From the IMG/VR virus record IMGVR_UViG_3300028571_000009: a stretch of 64,000 bases of DNA, one strand, 5' to 3'. The notes under the pieces are model-generated. The model ran no database searches, was not told where the DNA came from, and worked only from the letters and a program-made list of their open reading frames with translations. Positions 1,399 through 64,000 of this stretch are shown piece by piece (position 1 is the first letter of the stretch; each line of letters begins with the position of its first letter). The stretch is from a virus. The translations under genes were made by a program, and so were the position numbers.

Positions 1399-1863
1399 AT
1401 GGATTCAAAAACATTTCTTGCAGCTCTTCGAACAATTATTCGTGAAGAAGTAACGAAAGCCGTACGTAACGAGGTTGGTAGAGTATTAACTGAGGGCGCC
1501 TCACATCCTACACCTGTAGAACGCGCAGTGCAAATACGCCGTTCTGTAGAACATGCAGTACAAACACGCCGCCCGATAGCACAAAAACCAAAATTTAAAA
1601 ACCCGATGCTTAACCAGCTATTAGAAGGTGTGGCGCCTGCCCCGTCTGATGAAGCGAAAGTTGGATTTGAAGAGTGGCCGACAATGCAATATGCAGGAAA
1701 TCCGACACGTGGTATCTCGAATTCATATAAAAAAGGTCCAATCAATGCCGCACCTGAGGGTGTGAATATAGCCGCGATTGAACGTCAAGCTCCGGAAGTA
1801 GCTGCAGCATTAACAAGAGATTATCGTTCGTTAGTAAAAGCGATGTTAAAACCTAAAGCTTAA
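1399..1863 (+). CDS. Hypothetical protein with LIREEV-type leader
   Basis: N-terminus MDSKTFLAALRTIIREEVTKAVRNEVGRVLTE resembles the repeated leader family. Confidence 0.7.
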   Translation: MDSKTFLAALRTIIREEVTKAVRNEVGRVLTEGASHPTPVERAVQIRRSVEHAVQTRRPIAQKPKFKNPMLNQLLEGVAPAPSDEAKVGFEEWPTMQYAGNPTRGISNSYKKGPINAAPEGVNIAAIERQAPEVAAALTRDYRSLVKAMLKPKA

Positions 1864-1865
1864 TA

Positions 1866-2327
1866 ATGGCAACTCGTCGTCGGGAGGAAATATCATATAA
1901 TCTAATAGATTTACAGCCGAATATAGCTGTCGGAATTAAACTACCGTTTAGTACACGAACCGGTGGATTATTCGCATTATCATATTCAACCGAAGAACAA
2001 GGTATATCGAATTTAAAAAATCTATTGTTAACTCGTACTGGTGAACGATATATGTTACCAAATTTTGGGACGGACATTTATGATACTGTATTTGAAAACA
2101 ACGTAGATGATTTACCGATAATCCTACGGGATAGTATATCATCAGCAATCGCTTTTTGGTTACCGTACATAATTATTAACGACCTTACAGTAACACGAAC
2201 TTCTAAGTATGAATCAGACCCTATAGGTCACGCAATTCAAATTAGCTTAACCGTTCAAGTGGGCTCTAGAGGCGCAAATGTACCAATAACAATTATCGTA
2301 ACACCGTCGTCAATAACAATAACATAA
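1866..2327 (+). CDS. gp25: Baseplate wedge protein, gp25-like
   Basis: NLKNLLLTRTGERYMLPNFGTDIYDTVFE is the GPW/gp25 signature; directly upstream of gp6. Confidence 0.85.
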   Translation: MATRRREEISYNLIDLQPNIAVGIKLPFSTRTGGLFALSYSTEEQGISNLKNLLLTRTGERYMLPNFGTDIYDTVFENNVDDLPIILRDSISSAIAFWLPYIIINDLTVTRTSKYESDPIGHAIQISLTVQVGSRGANVPITIIVTPSSITIT

Positions 2328-4210
2328 TGGCAGAAACACATGATATAAAGTATTTAGGTAAAGATTTCAATCAGTTACGCACTAACTTGATTGAATTCGC
2401 ACGTAATTACTTTCCGAATACATATAATGATTTTAATGAATCATCCCCGGGCATGATGTTTTTAGAAATGTCGGCATACGTAGGCGATGTATTAAGTTTT
2501 TACACTGATAAACAATTAAAAGAATCATTTTTAATTTCTGCGGAGGAAAAAACTAATTTGTATTCGTTAGCACAATCGTTAGGTTATAAAGTAAAAAATA
2601 AAATAGCCAGCTCAGTTGATTTAGATGTATTTCAGCTACTACCGTCTACAACATCGGGCAGCGCCATTGTACCGGATTGGTCATATGCATTAAACATACC
2701 AGCTGGTATGACAGTTAAATCCAAATCAACTGGTGCGGAATTTAGAACTTTAGACACTGTAAGTTTTTCACAGCTAAGTAATATGCCGGGCTCAAATGTA
2801 TCAGTATATCAAATTAATGAAGTTACTAATCAAGCGGAGTATTACTTATTAAAACATTCTGTGAAGGCGATTGCCGGAAACGTTAATACCACTACGTATA
2901 GTTTTGGTAACGCTAAACGGTTTGATAAAATATCATTAAGCGATACAAATATAATCGACATTGTTGATATTGTAGACTCTGATAATAATGTGTGGACAGA
3001 AGTCCCTAATTTAGCACAAGACACTGTATTTGAAACAGTATCTAACGTATCACAGAATGACCCGAGCTTATCACAATTTAATTTAACCGTACCGTATTTA
3101 TTAAAGTTAAAGAAAACCGCCCGTCGGTTTATAACACGATTTAGAACGGATGGTACCTTGGATATACAATTCGGAGCAGGTATTTCAGCTGATTTAGATG
3201 AGGAAATAATTCCGAACCCGGATAATGTAGGCTCAGGACTACCGAATCTACAGTTGCAATATGACCAACCGTTAGACCCGTCGAACTTCATGTATACTAG
3301 AAGCTATGGTCTAGCTCCATCAAATACAACGTTAACGGTAAGATATACAACGGGTGGTGGCCTACAATCAAACGTCCCGGCATTCGACCTAACAGATATA
3401 GTAGGATTGACATTCGATATTAATGAGACCGGACTTAATGCTGGATTGCAGGGCCAAATAAAAGCGTCAGTTGCATGTACTAACCCTAAGCCAGGAACTG
3501 GCGGTAAGGACGAAGAGAGTTTAGATGATGTTAGAAATAACGCAATGTCATACTTTGCCGCACAGAATAGAGCAGTAACCGACCAAGATTATATTATTCG
3601 TGCATATTCAATGCCACCTAGATTCGGTGCAGTAGCTAAGGCATTCATTATTCAAGATTCGCAAATCGACCCAGTAACCAATTTGGGTATTTCGAACCCC
3701 TTAGCACTCAATCTATACTGTGTAGGGTATGACACTAATGGGAATCTTACTCAATTAAACTCCGCTGTAAAAGAGAACCTAAAGACCTATATAGGGCAAT
3801 ATCGTATGCTAACCGATGCTATAAACATTCGAGACGCGTATATTATTAATATCGGTATAGAATTTGAAGTGATTTGTTTACCGGACGCAAATTCGAATGA
3901 AGTTTTACTTAAATGTATTAATGCATTAAAGTCGTATTTCGATATTCGAAAATGGCAAATTAATCAGCCAATAATATTGTCAAAATTGAACACGTTATTG
4001 GACCAAGTAGCCGGTGTACAGACGGTAGTAAAAGTTGAATTAAGTAATTTATATAATGCAGACCTAGGATACTCTGGAAACGTGTATACTATTTCAAGCA
4101 GTGAAGGTGGGTCAACTCGTAATGGGGTTGTATACCCTAGTTTAGACCCATCTATATTTGAAGTTCGATTCCCCAGTAATGATATTAAAGGCCGCGTAGT
4201 AAGTTTATGA
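2327..4210 (+). CDS. gp6: Baseplate wedge protein, gp6-like
   Basis: DFNQLRTNLIEF...YNDFNESSPGMMFLEMSAYVGDVLSFY, GGKDEESLDDVR and QNRAVTDQDY motifs of T4 gp6/baseplate J. Confidence 0.9.
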   Translation: MAETHDIKYLGKDFNQLRTNLIEFARNYFPNTYNDFNESSPGMMFLEMSAYVGDVLSFYTDKQLKESFLISAEEKTNLYSLAQSLGYKVKNKIASSVDLDVFQLLPSTTSGSAIVPDWSYALNIPAGMTVKSKSTGAEFRTLDTVSFSQLSNMPGSNVSVYQINEVTNQAEYYLLKHSVKAIAGNVNTTTYSFGNAKRFDKISLSDTNIIDIVDIVDSDNNVWTEVPNLAQDTVFETVSNVSQNDPSLSQFNLTVPYLLKLKKTARRFITRFRTDGTLDIQFGAGISADLDEEIIPNPDNVGSGLPNLQLQYDQPLDPSNFMYTRSYGLAPSNTTLTVRYTTGGGLQSNVPAFDLTDIVGLTFDINETGLNAGLQGQIKASVACTNPKPGTGGKDEESLDDVRNNAMSYFAAQNRAVTDQDYIIRAYSMPPRFGAVAKAFIIQDSQIDPVTNLGISNPLALNLYCVGYDTNGNLTQLNSAVKENLKTYIGQYRMLTDAINIRDAYIINIGIEFEVICLPDANSNEVLLKCINALKSYFDIRKWQINQPIILSKLNTLLDQVAGVQTVVKVELSNLYNADLGYSGNVYTISSSEGGSTRNGVVYPSLDPSIFEVRFPSNDIKGRVVSL

Positions 4211-32471: not shown

Positions 32472-33311
32472 ATGAAAAAACTCCGACATTCTAAATTTAA
32501 GAATACCGGTATTTTGTTTGAAATGTTAGTCAGACAAATTGCCGCAGATACACTTAACAATAAAAGTTCAAAGTCTATCGACCTTATAAAGAAGTACTTT
32601 AAACAAGGTACTGAGCTATCAAAAGAATTGGAGCTATATCAAACTCTAGTTAAAGAAAAATTCAACTCTGAATCGAAAGCTACACAATTATTAGAAGCAG
32701 TAGTTGCTTCACAAAGGCATTTGAATCAGTCAAACCTGAATAAGCAGAAATATAACTTAATTAGAGAAATACAAAAGAATTATATTATAGAAGATTTCTT
32801 CAAAGCAACCGTTTCTAATTATAAGGAATTAGCGTCTATATATAAAGTGTTCGAATATAATATGGCAGATAATCCGGCCGACATAACTAGAACTAGACAC
32901 ACAATCATTGAACATATTTCAGCTGTAGGTAAAAAGCCAGAAGTTGCACAATTATCTGAGTTCAGTAAACAAGATAAAGATATTAGATTATTAACATACA
33001 AACTATTAGTTGATAAGTTTAATACCAAATATTCAAACCTAGATACCGCTCAGAAGAATACTCTCCGTGAATACATAAATAATGTGAATAACACAGTAAC
33101 ATTAAAATCATTTGTATCCGCGCAGGTACCTAAAATGCAAGCTTTGATTAAAAAGTATTCAGCCAACGTTACCGATAAAGTAACTAAAATTAAACTAGCT
33201 GAAACGATTTCGTTATTAGAAAAACTAAAAACGGTTAAGGTTGTAAAAGATAATCACATCTTATCGATGTTACGTTATTACGAATTAATTAAAGAACTTA
33301 AAAAGGTATAA
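32472..33311 (+). CDS. Hypothetical head-module protein
   Basis: 279 aa helical ORF between portal and protease; TATTTATA at 32435. Confidence 0.7.
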   Translation: MKKLRHSKFKNTGILFEMLVRQIAADTLNNKSSKSIDLIKKYFKQGTELSKELELYQTLVKEKFNSESKATQLLEAVVASQRHLNQSNLNKQKYNLIREIQKNYIIEDFFKATVSNYKELASIYKVFEYNMADNPADITRTRHTIIEHISAVGKKPEVAQLSEFSKQDKDIRLLTYKLLVDKFNTKYSNLDTAQKNTLREYINNVNNTVTLKSFVSAQVPKMQALIKKYSANVTDKVTKIKLAETISLLEKLKTVKVVKDNHILSMLRYYELIKELKKV

Positions 33312-33608
33312 ATGGCAACAATAGATTCAGGGGACGGATATTCAAATGCATCAGCTAATAAGCGTGATGCTATCAACCGTAGAAACAATAGTACCGCAAT
33401 TCTTGTAACAACAGCTAATTCACCGTATACTGTATCAGGCAGCGTACCGACTAATATTGCATTGACATGTAATACAGGTACTGCGGGTACCGGTTCATTA
33501 TCAAGTGGTGGCACGATTAGCTTAGGGTCGCTGCAGGTAGGGGCTATTTATCCATTATCATTATCGAATGTTATAGTAACAGCAGGTTCGGTAAATCTAT
33601 TATACTAA
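33312..33608 (+). CDS. Small hypothetical protein
   Basis: 98 aa, S/T/G-rich. Confidence 0.6.
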   Translation: MATIDSGDGYSNASANKRDAINRRNNSTAILVTTANSPYTVSGSVPTNIALTCNTGTAGTGSLSSGGTISLGSLQVGAIYPLSLSNVIVTAGSVNLLY

Positions 33609-33610
33609 TT

Positions 33611-34201
33611 ATGGCGAAGTATTTAAACGAAATGATATCTAGAATTCGCTTAGACGAGAAAGAGCAACTACCCAAAGATATTTTAGCATCACAGGGGGTT
33701 GAAATAGATGATGAAGACCTTCAAGAAATGTCTGATTCATCAGGGGCGGGACCATATAGTACACCATTCGCCTTCGGTAAAGCATCAGATAAATCAATTG
33801 AATCGTTAGGATATAAGAAGGTTAAAAAGAAACCAGGTGTAAATGTAGTTAAAGAAGATTCTGAATTCATGAAAGTGTCTAAACAAATGCACTTGACTGA
33901 GGTATCTTATAAAGATTACAAGAATGACCCAACCAGCTCTTCTAAATTTAAGTTGAATAACGCAATTAAGGAAATTAATAGCAGATTATTTCAAGTAGAG
34001 CGATATCTTAAGCAGAATCGTAAACTAAAAGAGGAGGAAAATTTAGGAACGGATGAATATTGGAAATCAACTGCACATAAATTAGTTAAAATGAACGAGC
34101 GAGTTCGCAATTTATATAAAGAAATTAAGAATTTTGGACTAGAAGAAGTTATGAAACAAATTCAAGAAGCTGAGCAATTAGCTCAAGAATCTAAAAGATA
34201 A
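33611..34201 (+). CDS. Hypothetical head-module protein (possible prohead core component)
   Basis: 196 aa with several (L/V)xE sites; immediately upstream of the protease. Confidence 0.6.
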   Translation: MAKYLNEMISRIRLDEKEQLPKDILASQGVEIDDEDLQEMSDSSGAGPYSTPFAFGKASDKSIESLGYKKVKKKPGVNVVKEDSEFMKVSKQMHLTEVSYKDYKNDPTSSSKFKLNNAIKEINSRLFQVERYLKQNRKLKEEENLGTDEYWKSTAHKLVKMNERVRNLYKEIKNFGLEEVMKQIQEAEQLAQESKR

Positions 34202-34205: not shown

Positions 34206-34811
34206 ATGAAGCAATTACTCGTAGATTATTTACCATTTCAAATAAGCCCGCAACAGATTAATGAAGCGATGGCCCAAAACGGTGGCCGGTTACTCGTAAA
34301 AGGTATTTTACAACGTGCGGACGCGGAAAACCAAAATGGTAGAAGATATCCTAGACCGATATTGCAACGTGAAGCGGTAAAATATACCGAGTCAATTAAG
34401 CAACGCCGTGCATTAGGGGAATTAGACCACCCAGATTCTGCGGTGGTCAATCTTAATAATGTATCACACAATATTATTGAGATGCATTGGGACGGTAATG
34501 ATTTATTAGGAACTGTAGAAGTATTGACTACACCTGCAGGAAACATATTACGTGAGCTATTCAAGGCGGGAATTACCTTAGGTATTTCTTCAAGAGGAAT
34601 GGGCTCCGTTAAGGAATTAGGTGAGGGAAAGGTTGAAGTTCAAGAAGATTTTGATTTGATAGCGTTTGATTTTGTATCGAACCCATCAACTCAAGGTGCG
34701 TTCTTAAGACCGATTCACGAATCAGTAAGTAAGGGTGGAATAATTACACCGGCAGCAAATAAGTATGGAGTAATTAACCGATTAATCACGGATATTTTAT
34801 CAGACTTCTAA
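34206..34811 (+). CDS. gp21: Prohead core protease (gp21-like)
   Basis: NQNGRRYP, ALGELDHP, GISSRGMGS and DFVSNPS motifs. Confidence 0.93.
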   Translation: MKQLLVDYLPFQISPQQINEAMAQNGGRLLVKGILQRADAENQNGRRYPRPILQREAVKYTESIKQRRALGELDHPDSAVVNLNNVSHNIIEMHWDGNDLLGTVEVLTTPAGNILRELFKAGITLGISSRGMGSVKELGEGKVEVQEDFDLIAFDFVSNPSTQGAFLRPIHESVSKGGIITPAANKYGVINRLITDILSDF

Positions 34812-35263
34812 TGAAAGTAACTCAATTCAGACAATTAATACGAGAAGAAATTAAAAAAGTTCTCAACGAATCAAACCACGTTATAACGGAAGGAGAATCA
34901 GCCGAACTAGAGAAGCTCTTCGCGAAGTTGGTACCGCCATCGGGCCCTGCTAAAACGGAAGAAGGCGAATTAGTTAGAGCTATTATGCGAATATGGTATC
35001 GTTACACAAACGATGGCGATTATTGGTTTAAAGGATACGGTAGAGAAACCGCAGGCCCGACACGTAAATGGTTAGCGAGTGAATCACCATTAGCAAGCGA
35101 AATGCGCAGCATACTTAAGGTGGTATCGTTACCACGCGGTTCCGCAGAATACGGTAGCAATGACCCGTATATGAAATCAATCAAACAGGCCGCAGCTGTT
35201 ATTGTTAAGTATGTGAATTCAAAAGGAAAAAATTTAACACCTAATACGGGTGACAGTAGATAA
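34811..35263 (+). CDS. Hypothetical protein with LIREE leader
   Basis: MKVTQFRQLIREEIKKVLNE N-terminus. Confidence 0.7.
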   Translation: MKVTQFRQLIREEIKKVLNESNHVITEGESAELEKLFAKLVPPSGPAKTEEGELVRAIMRIWYRYTNDGDYWFKGYGRETAGPTRKWLASESPLASEMRSILKVVSLPRGSAEYGSNDPYMKSIKQAAAVIVKYVNSKGKNLTPNTGDSR

Positions 35264-35708: not shown

Positions 35709-36236
35709 ATGAAAAAGAAACCAATAAAAGAATCGAAAGGTGTTTGGGGTATTGTCACACCTAAAGCATTAAATAATCCAAAACGGATTAGCTTATCAGA
35801 ATTAGCTAAGGAAACTTGGGAACCAAAACAGGAAGCTCCGCAATTATCTCCAGAAGATAAGAAAGCGTTCATGGAAGCTATCAATAATTTCGGCGGATTA
35901 AGTTCTGCTATATATAGAGAACAGACCCTTCAAGAAATTACTGAGAAAATCAAATCAATTGTAGAGCAAGCCGCACATGTAACTGTAACCGAAACAGAAG
36001 ATTGGTTCGATAGAGTTACTGTACAACGCCATATGAAACAATTGGGTGAATCATATAAAACCTTTGAAAAGACAGCTAAACAATTATCAGAATTACAACA
36101 ACGCTTAGAAGCATGTTATGAAGACATTGGTAGTACGTTAGGTAGATACTATAAGATAAATGAATTTGAACAAAAACCGGAAGATACTAATATGTCTGAT
36201 ATGGTTAAAGAAAACAAAGTAAAAAAACGTAGATAA
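35709..36236 (+). CDS. Hypothetical coiled-coil protein
   Basis: 175 aa helical ORF before a terminator. Confidence 0.7.
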   Translation: MKKKPIKESKGVWGIVTPKALNNPKRISLSELAKETWEPKQEAPQLSPEDKKAFMEAINNFGGLSSAIYREQTLQEITEKIKSIVEQAAHVTVTETEDWFDRVTVQRHMKQLGESYKTFEKTAKQLSELQQRLEACYEDIGSTLGRYYKINEFEQKPEDTNMSDMVKENKVKKRR

Positions 36237-36458: not shown

Positions 36459-37403
36459 ATGAAAGACTTATTAAAAGAGGCAATTGCCGATGCCAAAGCT
36501 GTACGTGAGACCGCTTTGCAAAATGCGAAAATCGCATTAGAAGAAGCATTCACTCCTAGATTGCAGTCAATCATCTCAAGCCAGCTTCAGAAAGAAGAAG
36601 AAGGCGCTGATGACGAAATGCAAGACGAAGATGATGTTGATTCAACCGAAGAAGCACCCGTTGAGGATGCTCCGGTAGAAGATGAAGTAGCAACCGACGA
36701 CGAATCATCAGAAGAATATTCTGAAGATGAAACCGGAGAAGGTGAAGCTCAAGAAGAAGAAGATGTTGATTTAGAAGAAATCATCCGCGAATTAGAAGGA
36801 AGCGATGACGAGAATGTTGATGACTTAGAAGAACTTGATTCTTCAGCCGTTGGTAGTGCTCCGAATAAAGCCCCGTCAAAAGACGCTAGTGATTCATCAG
36901 AAGATGGTGAAGATATTGATTTATTCGAAGATGACATGGAAGGTACCGAAGATGTAGCAGATGATGAGGAAGTTGATTTAGATGAAGTTATTCGTTCTCT
37001 TCGTGAAGAAGATGAAGTAGCTCCGGAAGAAGATACAAAAGAAGAAGAATTAGAAGAAGCATATAATGTTATTCGTTTCTTGAAAGATAAAATCAATGAA
37101 GTGAATTTACTTAATGCAAAACTTCTTTATTCAAACAAATTGTTTAAATCGTATGATTTGAACGAGGGACAAAAAATGAAGGTTATCGAAAATTTCGACA
37201 GAGCTCATTCAATGCGTGAAGTGAAATTAGTTTATACAACATTAGCTGAATCGTTCCGTGGACCTGCAGGTAGCAAAAGAATCGTAAAAGAATCATTTGC
37301 AAGTAAACCAGTAGCATCTACTAAACCAAATAGTAAAAATGTATTGACTGAAGGAGCAACGCAAGCATTGAGATTCCAGAAATTAGCCGGTCTTATTAAA
37401 TAA
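36459..37403 (+). CDS. Prohead scaffolding protein (gp22-like)
   Basis: Very acidic centre, C-terminal coiled coil, position between protease and capsid genes. Confidence 0.8.
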   Translation: MKDLLKEAIADAKAVRETALQNAKIALEEAFTPRLQSIISSQLQKEEEGADDEMQDEDDVDSTEEAPVEDAPVEDEVATDDESSEEYSEDETGEGEAQEEEDVDLEEIIRELEGSDDENVDDLEELDSSAVGSAPNKAPSKDASDSSEDGEDIDLFEDDMEGTEDVADDEEVDLDEVIRSLREEDEVAPEEDTKEEELEEAYNVIRFLKDKINEVNLLNAKLLYSNKLFKSYDLNEGQKMKVIENFDRAHSMREVKLVYTTLAESFRGPAGSKRIVKESFASKPVASTKPNSKNVLTEGATQALRFQKLAGLIK

Positions 37404-37435: not shown

Positions 37436-39097
37436 ATGAAAAACGTTAAATCACTCTTAACCAACACTGACTCGACATACCGTCAGCAATTGAGCGAGAC
37501 CAAAGGTCTTGTTACAAAATGGGAAGATACCGGTCTATTAGAAGGCTTGACAGCTGAATATGACCGTCATGGTATGGCAATTATGCTTGAGAACCAAGCT
37601 AAACAATTAGTTCAAGAAGCGAATGCAACAGGAACTGGTGGAAACTCTGAACAATGGGCTGGCGTAGCTCTTCCATTGGTAAGACGTATCTTTGCTGAAA
37701 TTTCTGCAAAAGAGTTCGTTAGTGTACAACCGATGAATTTACCTTCCGGCCTTGTATTCTACCTTGACTTTAAATTTGGAACAGCAGTAGCCGGTTTTAA
37801 TACAACCAATACTAGCAATGACCCTACTAAAGCTGGTTACCAAAACAACTCTATCTTTGGTGTTACTCAAGACGCTAACGTAGACGCCTCTAAAGGTCTT
37901 TACGGAGCAGGTCGTTTCGGGTATTCATCTAACGATACAGTAGCTATCGATATCGGTGTATCCGGTTCATACACACCATCGTCCGCTGTATTCGCAAACG
38001 TGACTGCCGCGAACCAAACAACAGATATTAACTTTGATTCTAAATTCTCTGCCTCGTTTACCGCGGGACACATTCAGAAAATCACTGTTTCTACCGCGTC
38101 ATTCACTAATCCAGACCTTAAAGGTGTTCGTGCATTTGTAATCAGCGGCTCAGGTATTGTTACTACGTTCCCTCAGTTTACCAGTTATAACTCGACAGCG
38201 GAAACAATTTCGTTTATCGTATCCGGTTCTGCATCGACTGCAGCATTGTATACCGCAGGCGTTACTTACTTCAAGCAACCGACTGCAACTGGCCGTGGTG
38301 ATTTTGAAGACCAAAGCTCTGGTACTAGTACTACAGACTTAGTGATTCCTGAAATCAACGTAGAATTGAGAAGTGATACAATCACTGCTAAGACTAAAAA
38401 GTTAAAAGCTATCTGGACACCAGAGTTTGCTCAAGACTTGAACGCTTATCACTCAATTGACGCTGAAGCGGAGTTGACTTCGATGTTATCTGAGTATGTA
38501 TCTATGGAAATCGACCTTGAAATCCTTGATATGTTGATTCAAAACGCTGTAACAACAGAATATTGGTCAACACAAGTAGGTGAGTACTGGAACGGTTCCG
38601 GATTTACTTCGGATTCAGCAACCAATGCAGCATCTGCATACAACCAAGGACAATGGTTCCAAACATTAGGAACTAAAATCCAAAAGGTTTCTAACAAAAT
38701 TCACCAAAAGACAATGCGTGGTGGTGCGAACTTCTTAGTATGTTCTCCAGACGTAGCTACTATCCTTGAATCTATTCCAGGATATGCAGCAGACACTAAT
38801 GGTGATAAATCACAATTTGCAATGGGTGTACAAAAGACCGGTTTGTTAAATAGCCGTTTCACTGTATACAAGAACCCATACATGTTGGAAAACACAATCC
38901 TATTGGGATACCGTGGTGCTCAGTTCCTTGAAACAGGTGCTGTATACGCCCCATATATTCCGTTGATTATGACTCCGCTTGTTTATGACCCGACTAACTT
39001 TACCCCTCGTAAGGGAGTTATGACGCGTTATGCGAAAAAGGTTGTGAGACCAGAATTTTATGGTAGAATCTACGTTAAGGGTTTGACAGCACTTTAA
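37436..39097 (+). CDS. gp23: Major capsid protein (gp23-like)
   Basis: LPLVRR, VQPMNLPSGLVF, KTKKLKAIWTPEFAQDLNAYHSIDAEAEL, YAPYIPL, PRKGVMTRYA. Confidence 0.95.
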   Translation: MKNVKSLLTNTDSTYRQQLSETKGLVTKWEDTGLLEGLTAEYDRHGMAIMLENQAKQLVQEANATGTGGNSEQWAGVALPLVRRIFAEISAKEFVSVQPMNLPSGLVFYLDFKFGTAVAGFNTTNTSNDPTKAGYQNNSIFGVTQDANVDASKGLYGAGRFGYSSNDTVAIDIGVSGSYTPSSAVFANVTAANQTTDINFDSKFSASFTAGHIQKITVSTASFTNPDLKGVRAFVISGSGIVTTFPQFTSYNSTAETISFIVSGSASTAALYTAGVTYFKQPTATGRGDFEDQSSGTSTTDLVIPEINVELRSDTITAKTKKLKAIWTPEFAQDLNAYHSIDAEAELTSMLSEYVSMEIDLEILDMLIQNAVTTEYWSTQVGEYWNGSGFTSDSATNAASAYNQGQWFQTLGTKIQKVSNKIHQKTMRGGANFLVCSPDVATILESIPGYAADTNGDKSQFAMGVQKTGLLNSRFTVYKNPYMLENTILLGYRGAQFLETGAVYAPYIPLIMTPLVYDPTNFTPRKGVMTRYAKKVVRPEFYGRIYVKGLTAL

Positions 39098-39207: not shown

Positions 39208-39231
39208 TTTCATATATTTATTAATATGAAA
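39208..39231 (+). promoter_or_regulatory. Short hairpin covering the AUG, with the promoter-like motif at the loop
   Basis: TTTCATAT(39208-15) pairs with ATATGAAA(39224-31); TATTTATT at 39215; stem is AU-rich and weak. Confidence 0.4.
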
Positions 39232-40977: not shown

Positions 40978-41012
40978 TTGGTAGATATTTATTAAGAAAT
41001 AATACACTAATC

Positions 41013-41291
41013 ATGAAAGTATCAGCATTCAAGAAACTAATAAGAGAAGAAGTTAAAAAAGTGGTTACAGAATTTGATGGAAAGGCCCATGACGCTTCCG
41101 TAAGTAAAGAAACTATATTCGCGGAGTATGATATGTTAGTTAACAAGTTCGGTGATTTGTTAAGTGATGCCTTTGAATTTAATCAAAATATTAAAGGTAA
41201 AGTACTTCCGGCTGAATATAATAAAGTCGCATTAGCTTTAAAGAAAATTCGAGACGGTGTTTATGTATTACAAGATGCTCTACCTAGTTAA
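41013..41291 (+). CDS. Small protein with LIREE leader
   Basis: MKVSAFKKLIREEVKKVVTE. Confidence 0.7.
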   Translation: MKVSAFKKLIREEVKKVVTEFDGKAHDASVSKETIFAEYDMLVNKFGDLLSDAFEFNQNIKGKVLPAEYNKVALALKKIRDGVYVLQDALPS

Positions 41292-41351: not shown

Positions 41352-42029
41352 ATGGACCACAACGAAGGTAATACCGGTAATCTAAAAAGAAAACCGAAGG
41401 GAGATATTAGATTCCACGTCACTCTCAATGATGAGCAAAAGGAAGCAAAACAAATTATTATAGATAATGCGGTAACCGTATTAAAAGGGCAGGCCGGGTC
41501 GGGAAAGACCTTAATAGCTTGTCAGGTTGCCTTAGATTCATTATTTAAGAAAGACGTCGAACGAATTGTTATTTGTCGACCGGCGATATCTAAAGAAGAA
41601 ATTGGATTCTTGCCCGGTTCTGCAAACGATAAGCTTCAACCGTATATGCAACCGGTTCTAGACAACTTCTATAAGCTGTATAATAAAGAAAAAGTCGACG
41701 CTCTTATTTTAGATAGAAAGATTGAGATTATACCATTTGCATTTATGCGTGGGCATACATTTACAAATACTTTTATAATAGCAGATGAGGCTCAGAATTT
41801 ATCTTTTGACTTCATGGAGCTAATATTAGGTAGATTAGGTTTAGGTAGTAAATTAGTAATTTGCGGGGATGCTTCACAGATTGACTTAAAGAACAAGAAA
41901 GATTCTGGTATTCATTACGTTACAGCATTAGAGGCGAGAGTTCCCGGATTCAAGATATTTACTTTAAAGAAGAATCACAGACATCCAATTGTACAATTAC
42001 TGTTGGACGTGATTACCGAATTGAAATGA
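41352..42029 (+). CDS. phoH: PhoH-like ATPase
   Basis: GQAGSGKT, IGFLPG, MRGHTF, ADEAQN, GDASQID, RHPIV. Confidence 0.93.
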   Translation: MDHNEGNTGNLKRKPKGDIRFHVTLNDEQKEAKQIIIDNAVTVLKGQAGSGKTLIACQVALDSLFKKDVERIVICRPAISKEEIGFLPGSANDKLQPYMQPVLDNFYKLYNKEKVDALILDRKIEIIPFAFMRGHTFTNTFIIADEAQNLSFDFMELILGRLGLGSKLVICGDASQIDLKNKKDSGIHYVTALEARVPGFKIFTLKKNHRHPIVQLLLDVITELK

Positions 42030-42364
42030 TAAAGTTAAAAAAGATATTGGTTCAGGAAACCAAACAGGAAGAGGAATTTGCAGAAACCAGAATGGGCGGT
42101 GCAAAAACAATTACTGACAATGCCAAAGAAAAAGGTGGGTTAGCAATGCTTACTTATCATCATTTCAAAGTTAAATTACCGTATTATAAAAAAGCCGCGG
42201 CAGGGACGCTTGATATGGATAAAGCATCTACCCAATATAAAAAACTTTTGGAAGAATTATATTCTACGACTAAAGATAATATGGGTATTGAACAGATAGC
42301 TTTTCAGGAATTAGTAGGTAAATTAGAAGTGTTAGGAGAGTTGCTTATAAAACATAAACAGTGA
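42026..42364 (+). CDS. Hypothetical protein with MIKL-type leader
   Basis: MIKLKKILVQE N-terminus. Confidence 0.65.
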   Translation: MIKLKKILVQETKQEEEFAETRMGGAKTITDNAKEKGGLAMLTYHHFKVKLPYYKKAAAGTLDMDKASTQYKKLLEELYSTTKDNMGIEQIAFQELVGKLEVLGELLIKHKQ

Positions 42365-42990
42365 AATTATCTTTATTAGATAATAAATTAAACAATAATC
42401 CGTATTGGTCGAATACTATAACAGACACGCCTACTATAAATGATGTAGCATTGTTCGACACAAACGGTTATGATTTATCCGGTTTAGAACAAAAGTATGC
42501 ACTGGTAAATCTATCAGCTTCGTCACATAGATATAAAATGGCATTGAAATATGATTGGTTTACTGATATTGATAACTCATATCAAAATGCCCATATAAAT
42601 CACGCGTTATTGTTTGAAAGAAAAGGCTATGATAACGAAGCTAAAGAGCAGTTAATAAAATTTTCTGAGCAATTGCCACTATGTCATAAGCTTTTAAAAA
42701 TTCATCCGAAATGGGGAATTGATTTTGCGGTTGATTATTGCGATACATACGGAAATGTTTTTGAAGTATTTCATTATGAATGGGATTCATTTCATTATGA
42801 AGAAGTAGAAAATGTAAAATACAATATGGAGAAATTCATAGTAAGTATGGATTGGGACAATGCAGCGTCGCACTTATTAAAAAGAAAACATGAGTGGGAC
42901 AGTTTATCATTTTTTGAACAAAGTAATTGGAAATGTAATTATTTTGGTGTAGAACCTGAACAATTCAAAATAGTAATTTGGAATACATGA
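42361..42990 (+). CDS. Hypothetical protein
   Basis: 209 aa, GTG start overlapping the previous stop. Confidence 0.65.
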   Translation: MKLSLLDNKLNNNPYWSNTITDTPTINDVALFDTNGYDLSGLEQKYALVNLSASSHRYKMALKYDWFTDIDNSYQNAHINHALLFERKGYDNEAKEQLIKFSEQLPLCHKLLKIHPKWGIDFAVDYCDTYGNVFEVFHYEWDSFHYEEVENVKYNMEKFIVSMDWDNAASHLLKRKHEWDSLSFFEQSNWKCNYFGVEPEQFKIVIWNT

Positions 42991-43003
42991 GATATTTATT
43001 AGT

Positions 43004-43450
43004 ATGAAACTACAAAACGTATTGTTAGAAGATTGCTGGGATGGATATACCCAAATCGGTATGAAAGAAAAAGACGGGAAAAAAGTACCTAATTGTGTAC
43101 CCGTTAAGGAGAGTATTATGTGTAATGAATGCGCACTTATAATGCTTAAATCATTACGTGAATCTACACTAACAGAAGCTGATTACCAAGGTCGCACAGT
43201 AACATTGAATAAACCCACTCGTGGCGATGTCGCTAAATATAAAGTATATGTTACTAATGATAAAGGTAATGTCGTTAAGGTAAATTTCGGGGATAAAAAT
43301 ATGTCCATAAAGAGAGATAATCCTGTTAGGAAAAAATCTTTTAGAGCGCGACATAAATGTGACCAAAAGAAAGACAAAACGACTGCGGGTTATTGGAGTT
43401 GTAAAATGTGGTCGTCCACACCGGTTAGTCAAATTTTAAAAGGTAAGTGA
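43004..43450 (+). CDS. Modular hypothetical protein
   Basis: MKLQNVLLE leader; CWDGY...VPNCVP module; RKKSFRARHKC...GYWSC module. Confidence 0.7.
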   Translation: MKLQNVLLEDCWDGYTQIGMKEKDGKKVPNCVPVKESIMCNECALIMLKSLRESTLTEADYQGRTVTLNKPTRGDVAKYKVYVTNDKGNVVKVNFGDKNMSIKRDNPVRKKSFRARHKCDQKKDKTTAGYWSCKMWSSTPVSQILKGK

Positions 43451-43986
43451 TGATAAAGTTAAAATATCTACTTAAAGAATACTCATATAAAGCTTCGAAA
43501 ATTTTTGATTTTGACGATACTTTAGCCACAACTGATACTAATGTAAGAGTTATTCATACTGATGGTACCGAATCAATAATAACACCGGCTGAATATGCTA
43601 TATATGATGCGAAACCGGGTGATAAGTTTGATTATAAGGAATTCAATCAATTATTAAAGTCCCCGAAACCCATAGATAAAATATGGAAGCTGTTAGTTAA
43701 AGCGGCAAAGAATCCTAGCAATAAAGTAACTATTCTAACCGCACGACAATTAGCATTTCCTATTAGATATTGGTTAAAGAAAGCCGGGTTAGACATTTAT
43801 GTCGTGGCGGTTGGTAGCAGTGACCCTAAGGTTAAAGCTGATTGGATTGAAAATGAAATTAAACGTGGGGCCACAGATATTACATTTATAGATGACTCAG
43901 AAAAGAATGTAAAGGCTGTTAGTAAATTAGCAGATAAGTATCCCGCAATTAAACTACAATCACTAACACCAAATCAAGTAAGATGA
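43447..43986 (+). CDS. HAD-superfamily phosphatase
   Basis: IFDFDDTL (DxD), ILTAR and FIDDS motifs. Confidence 0.8.
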   Translation: MMIKLKYLLKEYSYKASKIFDFDDTLATTDTNVRVIHTDGTESIITPAEYAIYDAKPGDKFDYKEFNQLLKSPKPIDKIWKLLVKAAKNPSNKVTILTARQLAFPIRYWLKKAGLDIYVVAVGSSDPKVKADWIENEIKRGATDITFIDDSEKNVKAVSKLADKYPAIKLQSLTPNQVR

Positions 43987-44261
43987 AGTTAAAAGAATTA
44001 ATAACTACCATTACCGAGAGTTTCGGTGGTCCTGGTAAAATGATACTACCCGCAAATCATAAAGCCGGATTAAAGGTAACTAAGGGTGGTAGTTGTTGTG
44101 CAAATTGTAAATACTGGGATACTGAAAATGAAGTATGTACAAGTAAATATTATCAAAAATGGGCAAAGACAGATAAAATACCTTATGCCCCTAATGAATA
44201 TTGTACAAATTGGTGGGAACCGAACATAATAAAGGTTAAACCAAAAACAGAAAACGAGTAA
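43983..44261 (+). CDS. Small Cys-cluster protein
   Basis: CCANCKYW...C...YCTNWW. Confidence 0.6.
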   Translation: MKLKELITTITESFGGPGKMILPANHKAGLKVTKGGSCCANCKYWDTENEVCTSKYYQKWAKTDKIPYAPNEYCTNWWEPNIIKVKPKTENE

Positions 44262-58686: not shown

Positions 58687-58995
58687 ATGCATAAGTTTAC
58701 ATTTACCTATTACGGTTGGATTCCATCATACAGAGATTTTGACCAAGACGATTATGAGTGTTCTGCAAAGACAATGCAAGACGCTTGGGCAGATTTTAAT
58801 AAGCACGTTAAATTCGTTAAAAGTGCCGCTCTTACTCATATTGATGGAAAAGCCGTTAAGAAAGACAATTTACCGGTACCAACTCAAGAAGGGAAATTAT
58901 CGTTGGATATTAAGAAGCTCGTTCGGGAAGAAGTTAAGAAGGCTATCAATGAGGATGCTACTTCATTTGTAAAAACATTCAAACAACCTAATTAA
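58687..58995 (+). CDS. Hypothetical protein with a C-terminal copy of the LIREE motif
   Basis: DIKKLVREEVKKAINE near the C-terminus. Confidence 0.6.
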   Translation: MHKFTFTYYGWIPSYRDFDQDDYECSAKTMQDAWADFNKHVKFVKSAALTHIDGKAVKKDNLPVPTQEGKLSLDIKKLVREEVKKAINEDATSFVKTFKQPN

Positions 58996-59001: not shown

Positions 59002-59388
59002 ATGAAAATATCACAATTCAAGAAACTTATAAACGAAGAAATCAGAACCGTTCTAAAAGAACAAGAAGCTTCTGATGCAATGGCCGCGATAGAACATATT
59101 AAGGCCGCAGTGAAAGATTTATCAGGCTCTACAATCGCACAAGAAGATGCCGTGCTTCAACATTTAATGGCTAAATATACAGGTCTATTAGGTAAGATTA
59201 CTTCTTACATAAAGACGAAGTATAAAGTAGAAGATGAGCCGGTTGATGATACACAACAAGATGTGAGCCCGGAAGCTTCGGGTCAACGTCAAGTACCTAA
59301 AACTCAACCATCTAAGCAACACGCTCCGGTTAAGAAAGCGCCTAGTACACCAACATCAGGGGCGCCTGACTACTCTAAATCAGTATAG
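59002..59388 (+). CDS. Hypothetical protein with LIREE-type leader
   Basis: MKISQFKKLINEEIRTVLKE. Confidence 0.7.
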   Translation: MKISQFKKLINEEIRTVLKEQEASDAMAAIEHIKAAVKDLSGSTIAQEDAVLQHLMAKYTGLLGKITSYIKTKYKVEDEPVDDTQQDVSPEASGQRQVPKTQPSKQHAPVKKAPSTPTSGAPDYSKSV

Positions 59389-59394
59389 TTTATT

Positions 59395-60713: not shown

Positions 60714-60760
60714 TTTTCATTGATAATCCATAGAAAATAGGATAATCGAATTTGATAGTT

Positions 60761-60804
60761 AGAAGTATTTTCCTTATATTTATTAGTATAAAGAAAGTAC
60801 TTTT
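60761..60804 (+). promoter_or_regulatory. 18-bp hairpin enclosing the promoter motif just upstream of the endonuclease gene
   Basis: 60761-78 pairs with 60787-804 (two G-U pairs, one mismatch); loop TTTATTAG; ATG at 60808. Confidence 0.7.
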
Positions 60805-60807
60805 AAC

Positions 60808-61650: not shown

Positions 61651-61680
61651 GGATTTTTCTTTTCAATATTTATTAGTGAT

Positions 61681-62232
61681 ATGATTAAACTATCCGATAT
61701 ACTTAAAGAAGCAGGTCGCACCGGCATTATGCGTGGTACCGCAGAGAAAGAGATGAATACAGGTATTCGTAAGGATTTCAAACGCACGAATATAAATTAT
61801 GGTGGTTGCGGTGTATTTGCTCAATTAATGTATTACGCAATAAAGAAAGAGTTTGGTGTGTCACCTATAATTCTAACTCTATTAAGACATAACGCGAGTA
61901 ATAGGAATCGGTATAAGAACGATGCTAACATCAATAACTTTAAATCATTAGGTGACTTTAGTGATGTCGGGTATATGTTATCACATATTATAATAGAAAT
62001 ACCGAATTCTAATTACTGCATTGATAGTGACGGTATTCATTCGAAAAAATGGTTTGATATTGAGTATACGCCGGACAGGTATAATGATAAGATGACTATT
62101 CAGACATTAACTAGATGGGCTAGAAATAAGGAATCGTGGAACGATATGTTTGACCGCGCGGAGATTCCTAATATAGTGAAGAAGATAGATGCTATTATGG
62201 CTAATGTGCATAAAGTAATTAATGGTAAATAA
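61681..62232 (+). CDS. Hypothetical protein, possible Cys-His-Asp enzyme
   Basis: MIKLSDILKE leader; GGCGVFA...SHIIIE...CIDSDG. Confidence 0.6.
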   Translation: MIKLSDILKEAGRTGIMRGTAEKEMNTGIRKDFKRTNINYGGCGVFAQLMYYAIKKEFGVSPIILTLLRHNASNRNRYKNDANINNFKSLGDFSDVGYMLSHIIIEIPNSNYCIDSDGIHSKKWFDIEYTPDRYNDKMTIQTLTRWARNKESWNDMFDRAEIPNIVKKIDAIMANVHKVINGK

Positions 62233-62249
62233 TTACATATTTATTAGAT

Positions 62250-62642
62250 ATGATTAAGTTACCAATAAGTATAGGCGACACAATTCTGACGGGAAAGTTC
62301 CGTAATAAGAAAACGGTCGTAAAACATATAGGTAAAAATGAATTAGGACTACCTACAGTAAACGGTAAAGTTATAGTAAATTATCGGTATTATACAGAAC
62401 CGGAGCCAGAACAAGTTAAAGAACATAAAACAATTATGAAAGTATCACAATTCAAGAATCTCATAAGAGAAGAAGTCAAGTCCGTTATCAAGGAAGACCG
62501 TACGCGTCTTGCGCCACTAAATAGTGCACAGGAAAACCTCTTAAAAGCATTGTATCTCGTTACAAAGAAACACTATGGTTCATTATCTGACCAAGAAATT
62601 ATTAATACACTATCACATTTAACGACCCTATATACTGGATAA
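62250..62642 (+). CDS. Two-module hypothetical protein
   Basis: SH3/KOW-like N-terminal module, then internal MKVSQFKNLIREEVKSVIKE at 62436. Confidence 0.65.
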   Translation: MIKLPISIGDTILTGKFRNKKTVVKHIGKNELGLPTVNGKVIVNYRYYTEPEPEQVKEHKTIMKVSQFKNLIREEVKSVIKEDRTRLAPLNSAQENLLKALYLVTKKHYGSLSDQEIINTLSHLTTLYTG

Positions 62643-62643
62643 T

Positions 62644-62928
62644 ATGAAACTATCACAATTCAAACAATTAATTCGGGAAGAAGTTAAAAAAGCTATAGCT
62701 GAAAAAAGGCTAGTTGAAAATATTCTTAATCCGAAAGCATTTACTAAACTGTTTATTCAGAATGCAAAGAATGGCCTAGTAGAAAAGCCAGTAACATTTA
62801 AAGACCTTAAACAGTCATTAGATTATGTTACCAGATTATCCGGAATTCCGGACCTTAAGAAAACTCATAAAAAAGAATATGAGGAAATCATAGGACATTT
62901 ATCATCATTCTACAATATCGAGAAATAA
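62644..62928 (+). CDS. Small protein with LIREE leader
   Basis: MKLSQFKQLIREEVKKAIAE. Confidence 0.7.
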   Translation: MKLSQFKQLIREEVKKAIAEKRLVENILNPKAFTKLFIQNAKNGLVEKPVTFKDLKQSLDYVTRLSGIPDLKKTHKKEYEEIIGHLSSFYNIEK

Positions 62929-62930
62929 TT

Positions 62931-64000
62931 ATGAAATTATCATCAGTCAAGAAAATCATTAGAGAAGAAGTTAAGAGAGTTCTTCATGAAGACGCTACTA
63001 ACCAAACAGTTGTAGATATTGTAGCAAAAACTACATTAGATAATTTCGGTCCAAAAGTTAAGGCTCGTGTCCTACATTTTAAGGATAACATGTATACTGT
63101 AGGTCTTAGAAAAGGTATTAACGGTTTATATGACCCGCGATACTATAGTATGTTAGCTGATGATTTAAGAAATAATTTACCGAAAGAATGGTTAGAGCAA
63201 TCATCTGTTGACGCGGTAAAAATTGGTACCGGCGGAGCAACCGAAGGTTCTATAATACTGCGGTTATCTCCAGTCGGTATTAAAGCTGTTGGTAAGTTAG
63301 CGAGATTCGGAGAATCAATTATTAAAGAAGCATACCCTAGAAGCACTCCGAACACGAAATTAACCTTATCCCTTATAAAAAATCAAAATAAAATGAGAAA
63401 ACCAAAATTATTAAAGGAGTCGATGATGTCTGAGATTGACCTGTTAGCTCAAGAAAGCGACGACGTTAAAACGTTCCTAAGTAAACTTAAACCATTCCTG
63501 CAGAAATTTGCGGCAGATGATAAAGCGTATGCTGACCCTAAAGTACTTAAAGGTATTGTGGCTATGTATTTTGACCCGAAAGGAGTTAAAGTAGCAATGG
63601 ATGAAAGCGTATCTAAATTAACCGAAATGATTCGTGCTGAGATTAAGAAAGTTCTTAAAGAAGATTCGAGACAAGCGACATCTGCGGAATTCCAAAAAGC
63701 TAGTAAATTTGCGGCCACGAAAGGAATGAAATTATCTAGTATCGGTGTTGATAAAAAGACCGGAAAAGTAAAAATTCAAGCTTCTAAGAGTGAAACATCA
63801 CCGGAAGAAGAATTTGAATTAGATGAATCTGTACCGACTCTGAGAAAATTAAAAGTTGGTAGTTTTGTAACGCCAAAAATAGGACCGCATAAAGGTCAGA
63901 AGCATGAAATAATTCATGACTTCGGTAATGGTAAATACAATATCAAACCAGTCGGATTAACGGGCGCACAAATTAAATACAAATTGGGCGCAGCCGGCGC
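62931..64000 (+). CDS. Partial modular protein with LIREE leader (runs off the window end; absent from the ORF track)
   Basis: My translation is open from ATG 62931 to the window end: MKLSSVKKIIREEVKRVLHE...KLLKE...MIRAEIKKVLKE... Confidence 0.75.
   Translation, partial: MKLSSVKKIIREEVKRVLHEDATNQTVVDIVAKTTLDNFGPKVKARVLHFKDNMYTVGLRKGINGLYDPRYYSMLADDLRNNLPKEWLEQSSVDAVKIGTGGATEGSIILRLSPVGIKAVGKLARFGESIIKEAYPRSTPNTKLTLSLIKNQNKMRKPKLLKESMMSEIDLLAQESDDVKTFLSKLKPFLQKFAADDKAYADPKVLKGIVAMYFDPKGVKVAMDESVSKLTEMIRAEIKKVLKEDSRQATSAEFQKASKFAATKGMKLSSIGVDKKTGKVKIQASKSETSPEEEFELDESVPTLRKLKVGSFVTPKIGPHKGQKHEIIHDFGNGKYNIKPVGLTGAQIKYKLGAAG

Follow-up and report, generated by a model that had tools for sequence, protein, structure and literature searches.

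The viral DNA analyzed here, one strand of 64,000 nucleotides from IMG/VR virus record IMGVR_UViG_3300028571_000009 (hereafter, the window), raises a simple question: why do genes with unrelated products begin with the same short peptide? A first-pass annotation had recognized two such N-terminal leaders, types A and B, and suggested that they are address tags that load a varied set of proteins into the phage head for injection. Its source is an uncultured lake phage related to T4, in which roughly a dozen unrelated small proteins begin with one or the other leader. The window genes given below with start and end coordinates all lie on the plus strand.

The type A leader has 20 residues and the consensus MKxSQFKxLIREEVKKxLxE. 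A profile search of the window recovered it at all positions where it had been noticed. With a profile built from the leaders themselves, full 20-residue copies start at 34811, 41013, 59002, 62436, 62644 and 62931; this window profile gives the six copies 38-46 bits, and a broader profile gives them 31-46 bits. The background of the profile scan in the window was below 5 bits, and beyond the full and weaker copies no six-frame segment of the window exceeded 4.4 bits.

The genes headed by full copies are otherwise dissimilar. Gene 34811..35263 (leader 34811-34870, 45 bits) encodes a 130-residue orphan body and begins at the stop codon of the protease gene. In loci L006-L010 and L020, a DUF3008 gene directly follows the protease gene, with no 34811-type gene between them; since the nearest relatives lack gene 34811, it looks like an insertion. 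Gene 41013..41291 (leader 41013-41072, 40-44 bits) has a 72-residue body, and gene 62644..62928 (leader 62644-62703, 43-46 bits) one of 74 residues. Gene 59002..59388 (leader 59002-59061, 36-43 bits) is located between the tail sheath and tail tube genes, as is its counterpart in a relative (L087:6273). The copy at 62931 had been considered divergent and proved to be a full leader (62931-62990, 31-38 bits); it heads a multi-module protein that is cut by the window end (62931..64000) and has 375 residues in its full form. A related protein, P0008, is 84% identical to it over the first ~150 residues only and then completely different.

Leader copies that had been reported inside longer proteins were also found. 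The full copy at 62436 (nt 62436-62495, 40-44 bits) is in frame within ORF 62250..62642, at residue 63, such that a single reading frame encodes a small beta-rich domain (residues 1-62, designated domain X), a type A leader and a 48-residue body. P0036 and P0120 have the identical architecture, and in P0262 domain X is placed behind a type B leader and ahead of a HAD body. An AF2 model of ORF 62250, of low confidence (pLDDT 57), contains beta strands, a disordered linker and a helix at residues 65-86. ORF 58687..58995 carries a copy without Met near its C-terminus (residues 70-89, nt 58894-58953, 22 bits), which reads G-KLSLDIKKLVREEVKKAINE and is followed by just 13 residues; the ORF represents a fused module or else a scar of recombination. 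A weak leader-like copy lies inside ORF 62931 (63618-63662, 9-11 bits). The other segment described as divergent, in the 154-residue protein encoded at 1399..1863, is a weak match only (10-16 bits; residues 10-25, nt 1426-1473), displaced by 9 residues relative to the protein start. This ORF is just upstream of the baseplate wedge subunit genes 1866 and 2327, and its membership in the type A set is doubtful.

The type B leader is only 10 residues long (MIKLKxLLKE-like), with hydrophobic residues at positions 4, 7 and 8 and Glu at position 10, and heads five genes in the window. The starts at 42026, 43004, 43983 and 61681 agree with those first assigned, and the fifth, placed at 43447, was one codon off: 43447 is a GTG one codon 5' of an ATG at 43450, which is the start used by homologues. 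Four of these genes form a cluster (42026..44261), whose N-termini read MIKLKKILVQE (42026), MKLQNVLLE (43004), MIKLKYLLKE (43450, with a HAD-like DUF2608 body) and MKLKELITTITE (43983); ORF 42361, within the cluster, has no leader. The fifth gene, 61681..62232, downstream of the tail tube gene, combines the leader MIKLSDILKE with a 173-residue orphan body, for which a search of near-length proteins found one other cluster only (88% identity). In the window together with 85 fetched loci, mostly related contigs, the type B pattern occurred at 53 of 1115 ORF starts vs 5 of 6981 internal Met residues.

Type A is widespread, matching 432 protein clusters among 1.84 billion proteins. In the top 150 of these 432 clusters, the leader is at residue 1 in 140, residue 18 is L/I/V in 147/148, residue 20 is Glu in 146/148, and residue 21 is mostly D/A/S/N/G, beyond which conservation is gone. 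IMG/VR matches agree with this picture: 211/227 begin with Met, and residue 20 is Glu in 190/210. The corresponding DNA pattern occurred in 103 IMG/VR stretches vs 3 in 596 Gb of prokaryote genomes. No type A leader was found in cultured phages, and our literature search found no paper with this sequence. Even if the capsid reading developed below is wrong, this leader is a portable module, among the most sharply bounded in phage dark matter.

The proteins behind the leaders were said to be unrelated, and the data bear this out. Within the window, the bodies have no significant mutual similarity (best BLASTP E-value, 0.028), and the 133 bodies of at least 40 residues from the top 150 of the 432 type A clusters make up 95 BLAST groups. 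The shortest body has 19 residues and the longest 340. The bodies have no charge bias of the kind seen in the basic T4 internal proteins, and in amphipathic moment the leaders do not significantly exceed shuffled sequences; both observations count against the capsid reading. The same body may also carry different leaders. The HAD-like body of gene 43450 occurs mostly behind MIKLKDILKE, but also leaderless, behind MLKE or behind an unrelated pro-piece of ~40 residues, and most leader-bearing forms have [LIV]-x-E a few residues ahead of the first strand. The body of the gene that follows the protease gene is conserved (46% identity, 5e-38), whereas its leader is A-like in some cases and B-like in others; x-E is invariant across this exchange. 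Judging from these arrangements, the leaders are portable and interchangeable on one body.

The last residues of both leaders are [LIV]-x-E, after which comes a small or acidic residue; the predicted maturation site of the capsid protein in the same genome has this [LIV]-x-E motif. The window encodes a T4-type head module consisting of a gp20 portal (Pfam Portal_T4, 1.6e-71), an S77 protease, an acidic scaffold-like protein and a gp23 capsid protein. The gp21 homologue reported at 34206 is indeed a prohead protease (34206..34811): it matches Peptidase_S77 (PF03420) at 5.4e-30, with 104.8 bits vs a cut-off of 27, and the T4 gp21 structure 5JBL at 2.3e-17. It has His and Ser at the catalytic positions, opposite two Ala of the 5JBL chain (residues 104 and 159), which we take to be H85A and S140A of an inactive mutant. 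Its own N-terminus contains I-N-E/A at residues 18-20 (here and below, a slash follows the Glu of the motif). The capsid protein (37436..39097; Pfam Gp23, 3.4e-77) has a putative maturation site at V59-Q60-E61/A62 (nt 37610-37618), in an N-terminal column where [LIV]-x-E/A is invariant in 21 distinct relatives; its placement presumably resembles that of the T4 gp23 site.

The same motif is concentrated in the products of neighboring genes. Four head-module proteins have 4.3-5.7 [LIV]-x-E sites per 100 residues, 3-4 times the window mean of 1.3. One is the scaffold-like acidic core protein (36459..37403), which starts MKDLLKE/A and has 16 sites in 314 residues (5.1 per 100); its gene is directly upstream of the capsid protein gene, the position of T4 gp22. 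Another (35709..36236), a candidate core protein that starts MKKKPIKE/S, has the highest density in the window (5.7 per 100). The others are encoded by two of the three genes between portal and protease (32472..34201), none of which matched a Pfam or PHROG family; the products of 32472 (4.3 per 100) and 33611 (4.6 per 100) are candidate prohead core proteins. Near the N-terminus, [LIV]-x-E has only about a twofold enrichment when all ORFs of the window are considered, a point against the capsid reading. The three complete leader-carrying genomes (3/3) also encode S77 and gp23, a co-occurrence that is not specific because S77 is present in all T4-like phages.

By analogy with T4, the reading that we favor, and hold to be modestly probable, is that both leaders are capsid-targeting propeptides removed by the S77 prohead protease. 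Tagged proteins would be made along with virion proteins, and the N-terminal leader (20 residues in type A, about 10 in type B) would bind the prohead scaffold core, so that the protein is built into the head. The activated protease (34206) would then degrade the core, trim the capsid protein at V-Q-E61/A62 and cut the leaders after the Glu of [LIV]-x-E (residue 20 of type A, about residue 10 of type B); type A might also be cut after I-R-E12. Once freed, the bodies would remain alongside the packaged DNA and accompany it into the host, and internal leader copies would mark the places where fused modules are separated by cleavage. The original address-tag proposal is partly supported: its analogy with the T4 capsid-targeting sequence fits every sequence test that was run (the T4-type head module, the [LIV]-x-E end, the match to the capsid site, portability and type B spacing), with packaging, cleavage and injection being inferences. 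Two findings go against a simple reading: type A genes are mainly clustered beside sheath and tube genes, and some are in replication-type neighborhoods.

These locations bear on the alternatives. Some type A copies adjoin polymerase, clamp or GroES/EL genes or lie among small genes of unassigned role, and the presence of leader genes among replication and chaperonin genes would suit a leader that acts in the infected cell rather than in the virion, as a shared interaction or regulatory helix that brings numerous accessory proteins to a single phage or host partner or sets their stability, or as no more than a coding start favorable to translation in a host lacking Shine-Dalgarno sites; its terminal Glu would then simply belong to a charged helix. 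Most bodies are orphans without virion-like features, the leaders are AT-rich, and the window starts that were read have no evident Shine-Dalgarno sequence. Moreover, the sole recognizable domain among 128 tagged proteins, a Tad2-like one, represents a sponge-type protein usually made inside the cell. We nevertheless consider this explanation unlikely. Selection is on the peptide, because Arg codons differ between copies and an internal copy without Met exists; conservation stops exactly at [LIV]-x-E, the motif also present at the capsid protein site; one body takes several unrelated pro-pieces with only [LIV]-x-E in common; and head-core proteins and the gene after the protease have the same kind of leader.

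A second alternative, which we regard as distinctly improbable, is that the leader addresses proteins to the tail or its assembly, for example as lumen passengers or assembly helpers, in the way of cargo leaders in phage-tail-like injection machines, with no capsid loading. Its attraction lies in gene order. Among 102 IMG/VR loci chosen by the leader pattern alone, the tail tube gene was present in 35, the sheath gene in 34 and the capsid protein gene in only 3, and about a third of the loci have a variable slot of the form sheath - [0-5 type A genes] - tube - [1-4 type A genes]; the sheath-tube position of gene 59002 is also kept in a relative. However, the sheath-tube region may merely be a strongly expressed, insertion-tolerant late region, and in a phage the tape measure protein normally occupies the tail lumen. 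Among the window's tail proteins whose role is known, none has a leader. Several lineages have the leader on the gene that follows the protease, and genome G022 has it on genes between protease and capsid protein. The [LIV]-x-E end also indicates a protease whose activity in T4 is confined to the prohead interior (PMC9026906).

The nucleotide sequences of the leaders address a third explanation. Type A copies are alike at the DNA level, as had been noted (60-nt leaders are 68-80% identical), but exact runs common to them are only 8-16 nt, and most of the identity is present because the peptide is conserved. The suggestion that DNA similarity lets cargo genes shuffle is therefore weakly supported, although mosaic and fused proteins with joints at leaders are found. 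An upstream, strand-specific motif, ATATTTATTA, is common to four leader gene units, including gene 41013 (motif at 40985), and the portal gene, a point in favor of capsid targeting. Identical residues use the same codon between copies in 126/174 cases vs 85 expected. This excess, the tandem arrays (62436, 62644 and 62931 in the window, up to 13 genes in L053) and the leader variants that each genome has of its own are as expected from local duplication, and the leader could then lack any separate tag function, being the N-terminal helix retained by fast-evolving paralogues. We consider this view highly unlikely, given that the same leader occurs on a HAD-fold enzyme that also exists leaderless and behind the unrelated domain X, that leaders differ on orthologous bodies, and that bodies are so diverse in length and BLAST group. 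Conservation of 20 residues in 432 clusters, with the remainder totally diverged, implies selection on the leader itself. Finally, recognition by a modifying enzyme, as in RiPP-like systems, would share the general pattern of one leader on many bodies and is very improbable indeed, since the bodies are large, diverse proteins rather than short core peptides, no radical-SAM or other maturase was found among the window genes scanned, and window-gene homologues near the leader in the 102 loci are mainly sheath and tube.

If capsid targeting is correct, a broader proposal may be considered, which we advance tentatively and rate as somewhat short of probable: environmental T4-type phages may run a general plug-in capsid cargo system, in which two interchangeable clip-off leaders (10 and 20 residues) serve hundreds of unrelated proteins, including enzymes and at least one Tad2-like anti-defense domain, with fused modules cut at leader-like joints and a repertoire that turns over in sheath/tube hot spots and in islands of a dozen tagged genes. 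T4 proteins that travel with the DNA are first-strike counter-defense factors, and to our knowledge only a handful of such proteins are known, all from coliphages. Three of the T4 internal proteins act against GmrSD restriction enzymes, each blocking another one (PMC12373910). Under the plug-in proposal, the leader would offer a handle by which phage-injected proteins could be found from sequence; if LIREEV-type and MIKLK-type leaders act as the T4 capsid-targeting sequence (CTS) does, one short motif would reveal hundreds of candidate injected proteins of lake and marine phages, mostly of no known family. The T4 CTS already serves to bring foreign proteins into phage heads (PMC9026906), and leaders that act in this way would add new tags of greater length for that purpose.

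Among known systems, extracellular contractile injection systems (PVC, Afp) also load varied cargo by an N-terminal tag, and the leader genes described here resemble them in being near sheath and tube genes. Their cargo tags, however, are disordered stretches of about 50 residues that are not known to be cleaved off at a Glu motif, and these machines have no capsid. In the giant phages SPN3US (gp245), phiKZ (gp175) and 201phi2-1, many packaged proteins are reportedly processed by the head protease at a short Glu-ending motif, some at several places (PMC5694885, PMC7411985, PMC10052503). These phages have a different head lineage and larger proteins, whereas the phage studied here is a true T4-type with an S77 protease. 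We know of no single shared short leader described for giant-phage ejection proteins.

The closest parallel is the T4 CTS of IPI, IPII, IPIII and Alt, which is removed by gp21: in both cases, short N-terminal propeptides head unrelated small proteins in a phage with a gp20/gp21/gp22/gp23 head (PMC9026906; PMC3012670; PMC12373910). T4 propeptides have 10-19 residues, compared with 10 and 20 here, and use residues 4 and 7 for targeting and 8 and 10 for processing; IPII and IPIII start MKTYQEFIAE/A (PMC9026906). The leaders here, like the T4 propeptides, end in hydrophobic-x-Glu with a small residue next. In sequence, leader and T4 CTS each begin with MK, and the spacing of type B is that of the T4 CTS (hydrophobic residues at 4/7/8 and Glu at 10; PMC9026906), a likeness over ten residues that is too short for statistics on homology. 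The tagged gene set varies between related phages in the T4 group as it does here. Targeting, cleavage and injection are experimental facts in T4, whereas the present leaders are known from sequence alone. Type A differs from the T4 CTS in having a 20-residue sequence of its own, in which I-R-E12 and [LIV]-x-E20 are both candidate sites, and many leader genes occupy the slot around tail sheath and tube genes. Unlike in T4, leader copies are also found inside longer proteins, two leader classes coexist and swap on one body in related contigs, and type A heads hundreds of body families, compared with about ten for the T4 CTS.

The type A leader, a 20-residue N-terminal segment (MKxSQFKxLIREEVKKxLxE), is present in six full copies that start at 34811, 41013, 59002, 62436, 62644 and 62931, and all type A positions proposed in the first-pass annotation hold. 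Residues M1, K2, I10, E12, E13 and E20 are invariant over these copies. A profile built from the leader scored the six at 38-46 bits; a Met-less copy near the end of ORF 58687 (58894-58953) had 22 bits, a shifted, divergent copy in ORF 1399 had 10-16 bits, a faint copy inside ORF 62931 had 9-11 bits, and every other six-frame segment of the window had at most 4.4 bits. The 62436 copy lies in frame within ORF 62250, at residue 63. The remainders of the proteins (bodies) had been described as unrelated, and we found no significant mutual similarity behind the window leaders. Pfam and PHROGs contained no family for the type A bodies.

A second, shorter leader (type B) had also been proposed, and genes 42026, 43004, 43450, 43983 and 61681 do begin with MIKLK..LL.E-like peptides of 9-12 residues; the start of 43450 is one codon downstream of a GTG at 43447. 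Since this motif is short, its frequency was tested in the window and 85 fetched loci, mostly related contigs, where it heads 53 of 1115 ORFs and comes after only 5 of 6981 internal Met residues. Type A is twice the size of type B; I-R-E12 is its first candidate site, and the second half, EVRKVLKE, is similar to type B. The MIKL start of ORF 62250 was rejected as a type B leader, as it belongs to the small domain of that ORF itself. For gene 61681, which has almost no homologues, the protein atlas returned viral hypotheticals only.

Outside the window, the type A profile matched 432 protein clusters in a search of 1.84 billion representative proteins (E <= 0.001). In 140 of the best 150 clusters, the leader is at residue 1. 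Position 18 holds Leu, Ile or Val in 147 of 148 cases and position 20 holds Glu in 146 of the 148; position 21 is in most cases D, A, S, N or G, beyond which no conservation is left. Bodies with 40 or more residues number 133 in this same set and fall into 95 BLAST groups. Pfam recognized a domain in only one of 128 type A-tagged proteins, a member of alignment A2 with a Tad2-like (Thoeris anti-defence 2) domain (E = 5e-8). Of 227 profile matches in IMG/VR loci, 211 start with Met and 198 lack an in-frame Met further upstream; the median protein length is 113 residues. A degenerate DNA pattern of the leader was found in 103 IMG/VR stretches, often with 2-4 matches per few hundred bases, and in three stretches only of 596 Gb of prokaryote genomes. 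Two of these three (L192 and L194) lie on short contigs that were assigned to Actinomycetota MAGs; these contigs are probably pieces of phage genomes, and their binning is at most a weak hint of the host. When the consensus leader and one tagged protein were compared by tblastn with 50,697 cultured phage records, no type A leader was found; an internal match in S-SSM7 (E = 0.6) was treated as noise. Microcystis phage Mel-JY01 lacks a good type A copy; both it and Flavobacterium phage immuto have diverged N-termini of a leader-like type beside the protease gene. A literature text search found no leader strings in paper texts.

The leaders end in [LIV]-x-E, a putative cut site of the Peptidase_S77 prohead protease encoded by gene 34206, a homologue of T4 gp21. 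In 21 distinct relatives, [LIV]-x-E|A is found at one column of the capsid protein N-terminal alignment, with a variable middle residue. In the window capsid protein it is V59-Q60-E61|A62, about 10 residues ahead of the Gp23 domain; the T4 gp23 maturation site shares this motif and is similarly placed. The protease itself carries I-N-E|A at residues 18-20, and the scaffold-like protein 36459 begins with MKDLLKE|A. The density of the motif in proteins near the protease is 3-4 times that of the whole window (5.7 per 100 residues in 35709, 5.1 in 36459, 4.6 in 33611 and 4.3 in 32472; window mean 1.3), as would be expected of degraded core proteins. Near the N-terminus, enrichment of the motif across all ORFs of the window is only about twofold.

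Further information came from bodies that occur with different N-termini. Gene 43450 has a HAD-like body with more than 900 homologues, of which some begin at the first strand (MRKLRIFDFDDT), some add MLKE ahead of it, most have MIKLKDILKE, and others carry an unrelated ~40-residue pro-piece. In one homologue, a type B leader is followed by domain X (a small module also found in ORF 62250), V-I-K-E and then the body. Most leader-bearing HAD-like forms have [LIV]-x-E a few residues ahead of the first strand. Similarly, the gene directly 3' of the protease keeps its body across several lineages (46% identity, 5e-38), while its leader is A-like in some and B-like or degenerate in others; the x-E column is invariant. 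Gene 34811, which occupies this place in the window, is missing from the nearest relatives and therefore looks like an inserted accessory gene.

The best available reading, to which we give somewhat better than even odds on these sequence patterns, is that the leaders would be capsid-targeting propeptides. Body charge and pI have no bias, and the hydrophobic moment of the leader does not exceed that of shuffled sequences, so neither body charge nor amphipathicity lends the capsid-targeting reading support. An unlikely alternative is that the leader helix acts in the cytoplasm. It agrees with the orphan bodies and with copies outside head and tail modules: in leader-bearing genomes, one copy lies between clamp-like and GroES/GroEL genes and one among small unknown genes. 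However, a cytoplasmic role leaves unexplained both the sharp [LIV]-x-E boundary and the unrelated pro-pieces that have only this motif in common.

The window is part of a contig of 182,403 bases, has a G+C content of about 36%, and carries every long ORF on the + strand. It encodes baseplate wedge proteins (1866 and 2327), a gp20-type portal that contains an intein (29278-32424; Intein_splicing at residues 108-511, followed by the Portal_T4 domain at 537-893), the S77 protease (34206), a gp23-type capsid protein (37436), a sheath gene that matches those of relatives (54370), a gp19-type tail tube (60225), PhoH and a GH19-like lysozyme. The closest cultured phages, Mel-JY01 and Flavobacterium phage immuto, are distant, with about 70% identity in head genes only. 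The head module also has a conserved DUF3008 protein (35276-35707), whose gene directly follows that of the protease in the nearest relatives; the corresponding neighborhood of Mel-JY01 contains a gene for ribosomal protein S21. Zinc-finger-like N-termini were seen in genes directly after the sheath and tube genes (56930-57787 and 60808-61650, the latter with a Vsr/DUF559-like endonuclease domain), and perhaps after the capsid protein gene (39226-40977) and within the terminase gene (27064-28044); these genes look like homing endonucleases. Three tandem paralogues of 402-422 residues at 49618-53305 have a common N-terminus (M.QQLGY...G.LGI...GNYTYYADYTSA) and may be receptor-binding or fibre proteins.

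Among 102 IMG/VR loci selected solely by the leader pattern, 35 have a tail tube gene, 34 a sheath gene and 3 a capsid protein gene. The order is sheath, 0-5 type A genes, tube and 1-4 type A genes, with counts and sizes that vary among relatives. The window fits this order, with 58687 and 59002 before the tube gene and 61681, 62250, 62644 and 62931 after it. S77 and gp23 are encoded in each of the three complete genomes that carry the leader, and most leader copies in these genomes have head or tail genes no more than about 30 kb away; this association with S77 is not specific because, to our knowledge, all T4-type phages have S77. One exception to this placement is a locus (L195, G012:160000-178000) that has an island of about 11 consecutive tagged genes of types A and B, which adjoins two large proteins with signal-peptide-like N-termini. 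In two distant genomes (L086:10395-14212 and L197:6683-8398), a protein of 570-650 residues comes after the type A genes; it has a common N-terminal motif, L.EWSYR...G.P...N..H...L..IL.E.G, and no counterpart in the window. The sheath-tube slot agrees with the idea that the leader is a tail address. We consider this quite improbable, as it does not fit a leader on the gene directly 3' of the protease, and the T4 protease works only inside the prohead (PMC9026906).

Four leader gene units of the window and the portal gene have a common upstream motif, ATATTTATTA. All 11 occurrences are on the + strand, with 10 of the 11 at 2-27 nt before a start codon; positions on the + strand include 6316, 29241, 39214, 40985, 42992, 49153, 57886, 60776, 61666 and 62237. 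This phage group probably uses the motif as a promoter or gene-start element, and in some cases the motif is too near the ATG for a classical -10 box. Its sharing would fit, and does not prove, joint expression of the leader genes and the portal gene.

Leaders are also found within proteins. Two to four copies per protein occur in P0001, P0051, P0112, P0150 and P0083, proteins from outside the window, and the internal copies often keep Met. Domain X is a beta-rich module of about 60 residues (IK.PI.IGDT...G.FKNK...NE.G.P..NG) seen at 62250-62435, in P0036, P0120 and P0262, and at L195:9794-9991; the AF2 model of ORF 62250 is of low confidence (pLDDT 57). It stands alone, ahead of leader A and a body (also in P0036 and P0120), or with a type B leader before it and the HAD enzyme after it. 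P0008 is 84% identical to the 62931 protein over about 150 residues, and beyond these the two are unrelated. A third, degenerate leader at this divergence point (residues 144-163 of the 62931 protein) was rejected, having no profile support and a BLAST E of 0.077. These mosaics therefore indicate that modules were exchanged, with some joints at leaders. Plain paralogy of the tagged genes conflicts with what the HAD-like body and domain X show and is very improbable. It had further been suggested that DNA similarity of the leaders may let cargo genes shuffle. The similarity was borne out, as the six window leaders are 68-80% identical in DNA, with longest exact shared runs of 8-16 nt. The same codon is used at 126 of 174 identical residues versus 85 expected. 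Because of these figures, the similarity mostly follows from the conserved peptide, and DNA recombination at leaders is possible but weakly supported. That the segment is a leader recognized by a maturase is hardly credible, since no candidate partner gene was found among the window genes scanned or among homologues of window genes in the 102 loci.

The capsid-targeting reading has its closest parallel in the internal proteins of T4, for which the leader is the sole thing in common (PMC12373910, PMC3012670). In the T4 record, IPII and IPIII begin with MKTYQEFIAE|A and IPI with MKTFKEFTSTTTPVSTITE|A. Replacement of Glu by Asp at residue 10 blocks processing in T4. The T4 propeptides are 10-19 residues long and confer core affinity; in IPIII, targeting involves residues 4 and 7 and processing involves residues 8 and 10, and this capsid-targeting sequence may be a general loading route for varied proteins in T4-like phages (PMC9026906). 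Type B has the same spacing as the T4 sequence, with hydrophobic residues at 4, 7 and 8 and Glu at 10.
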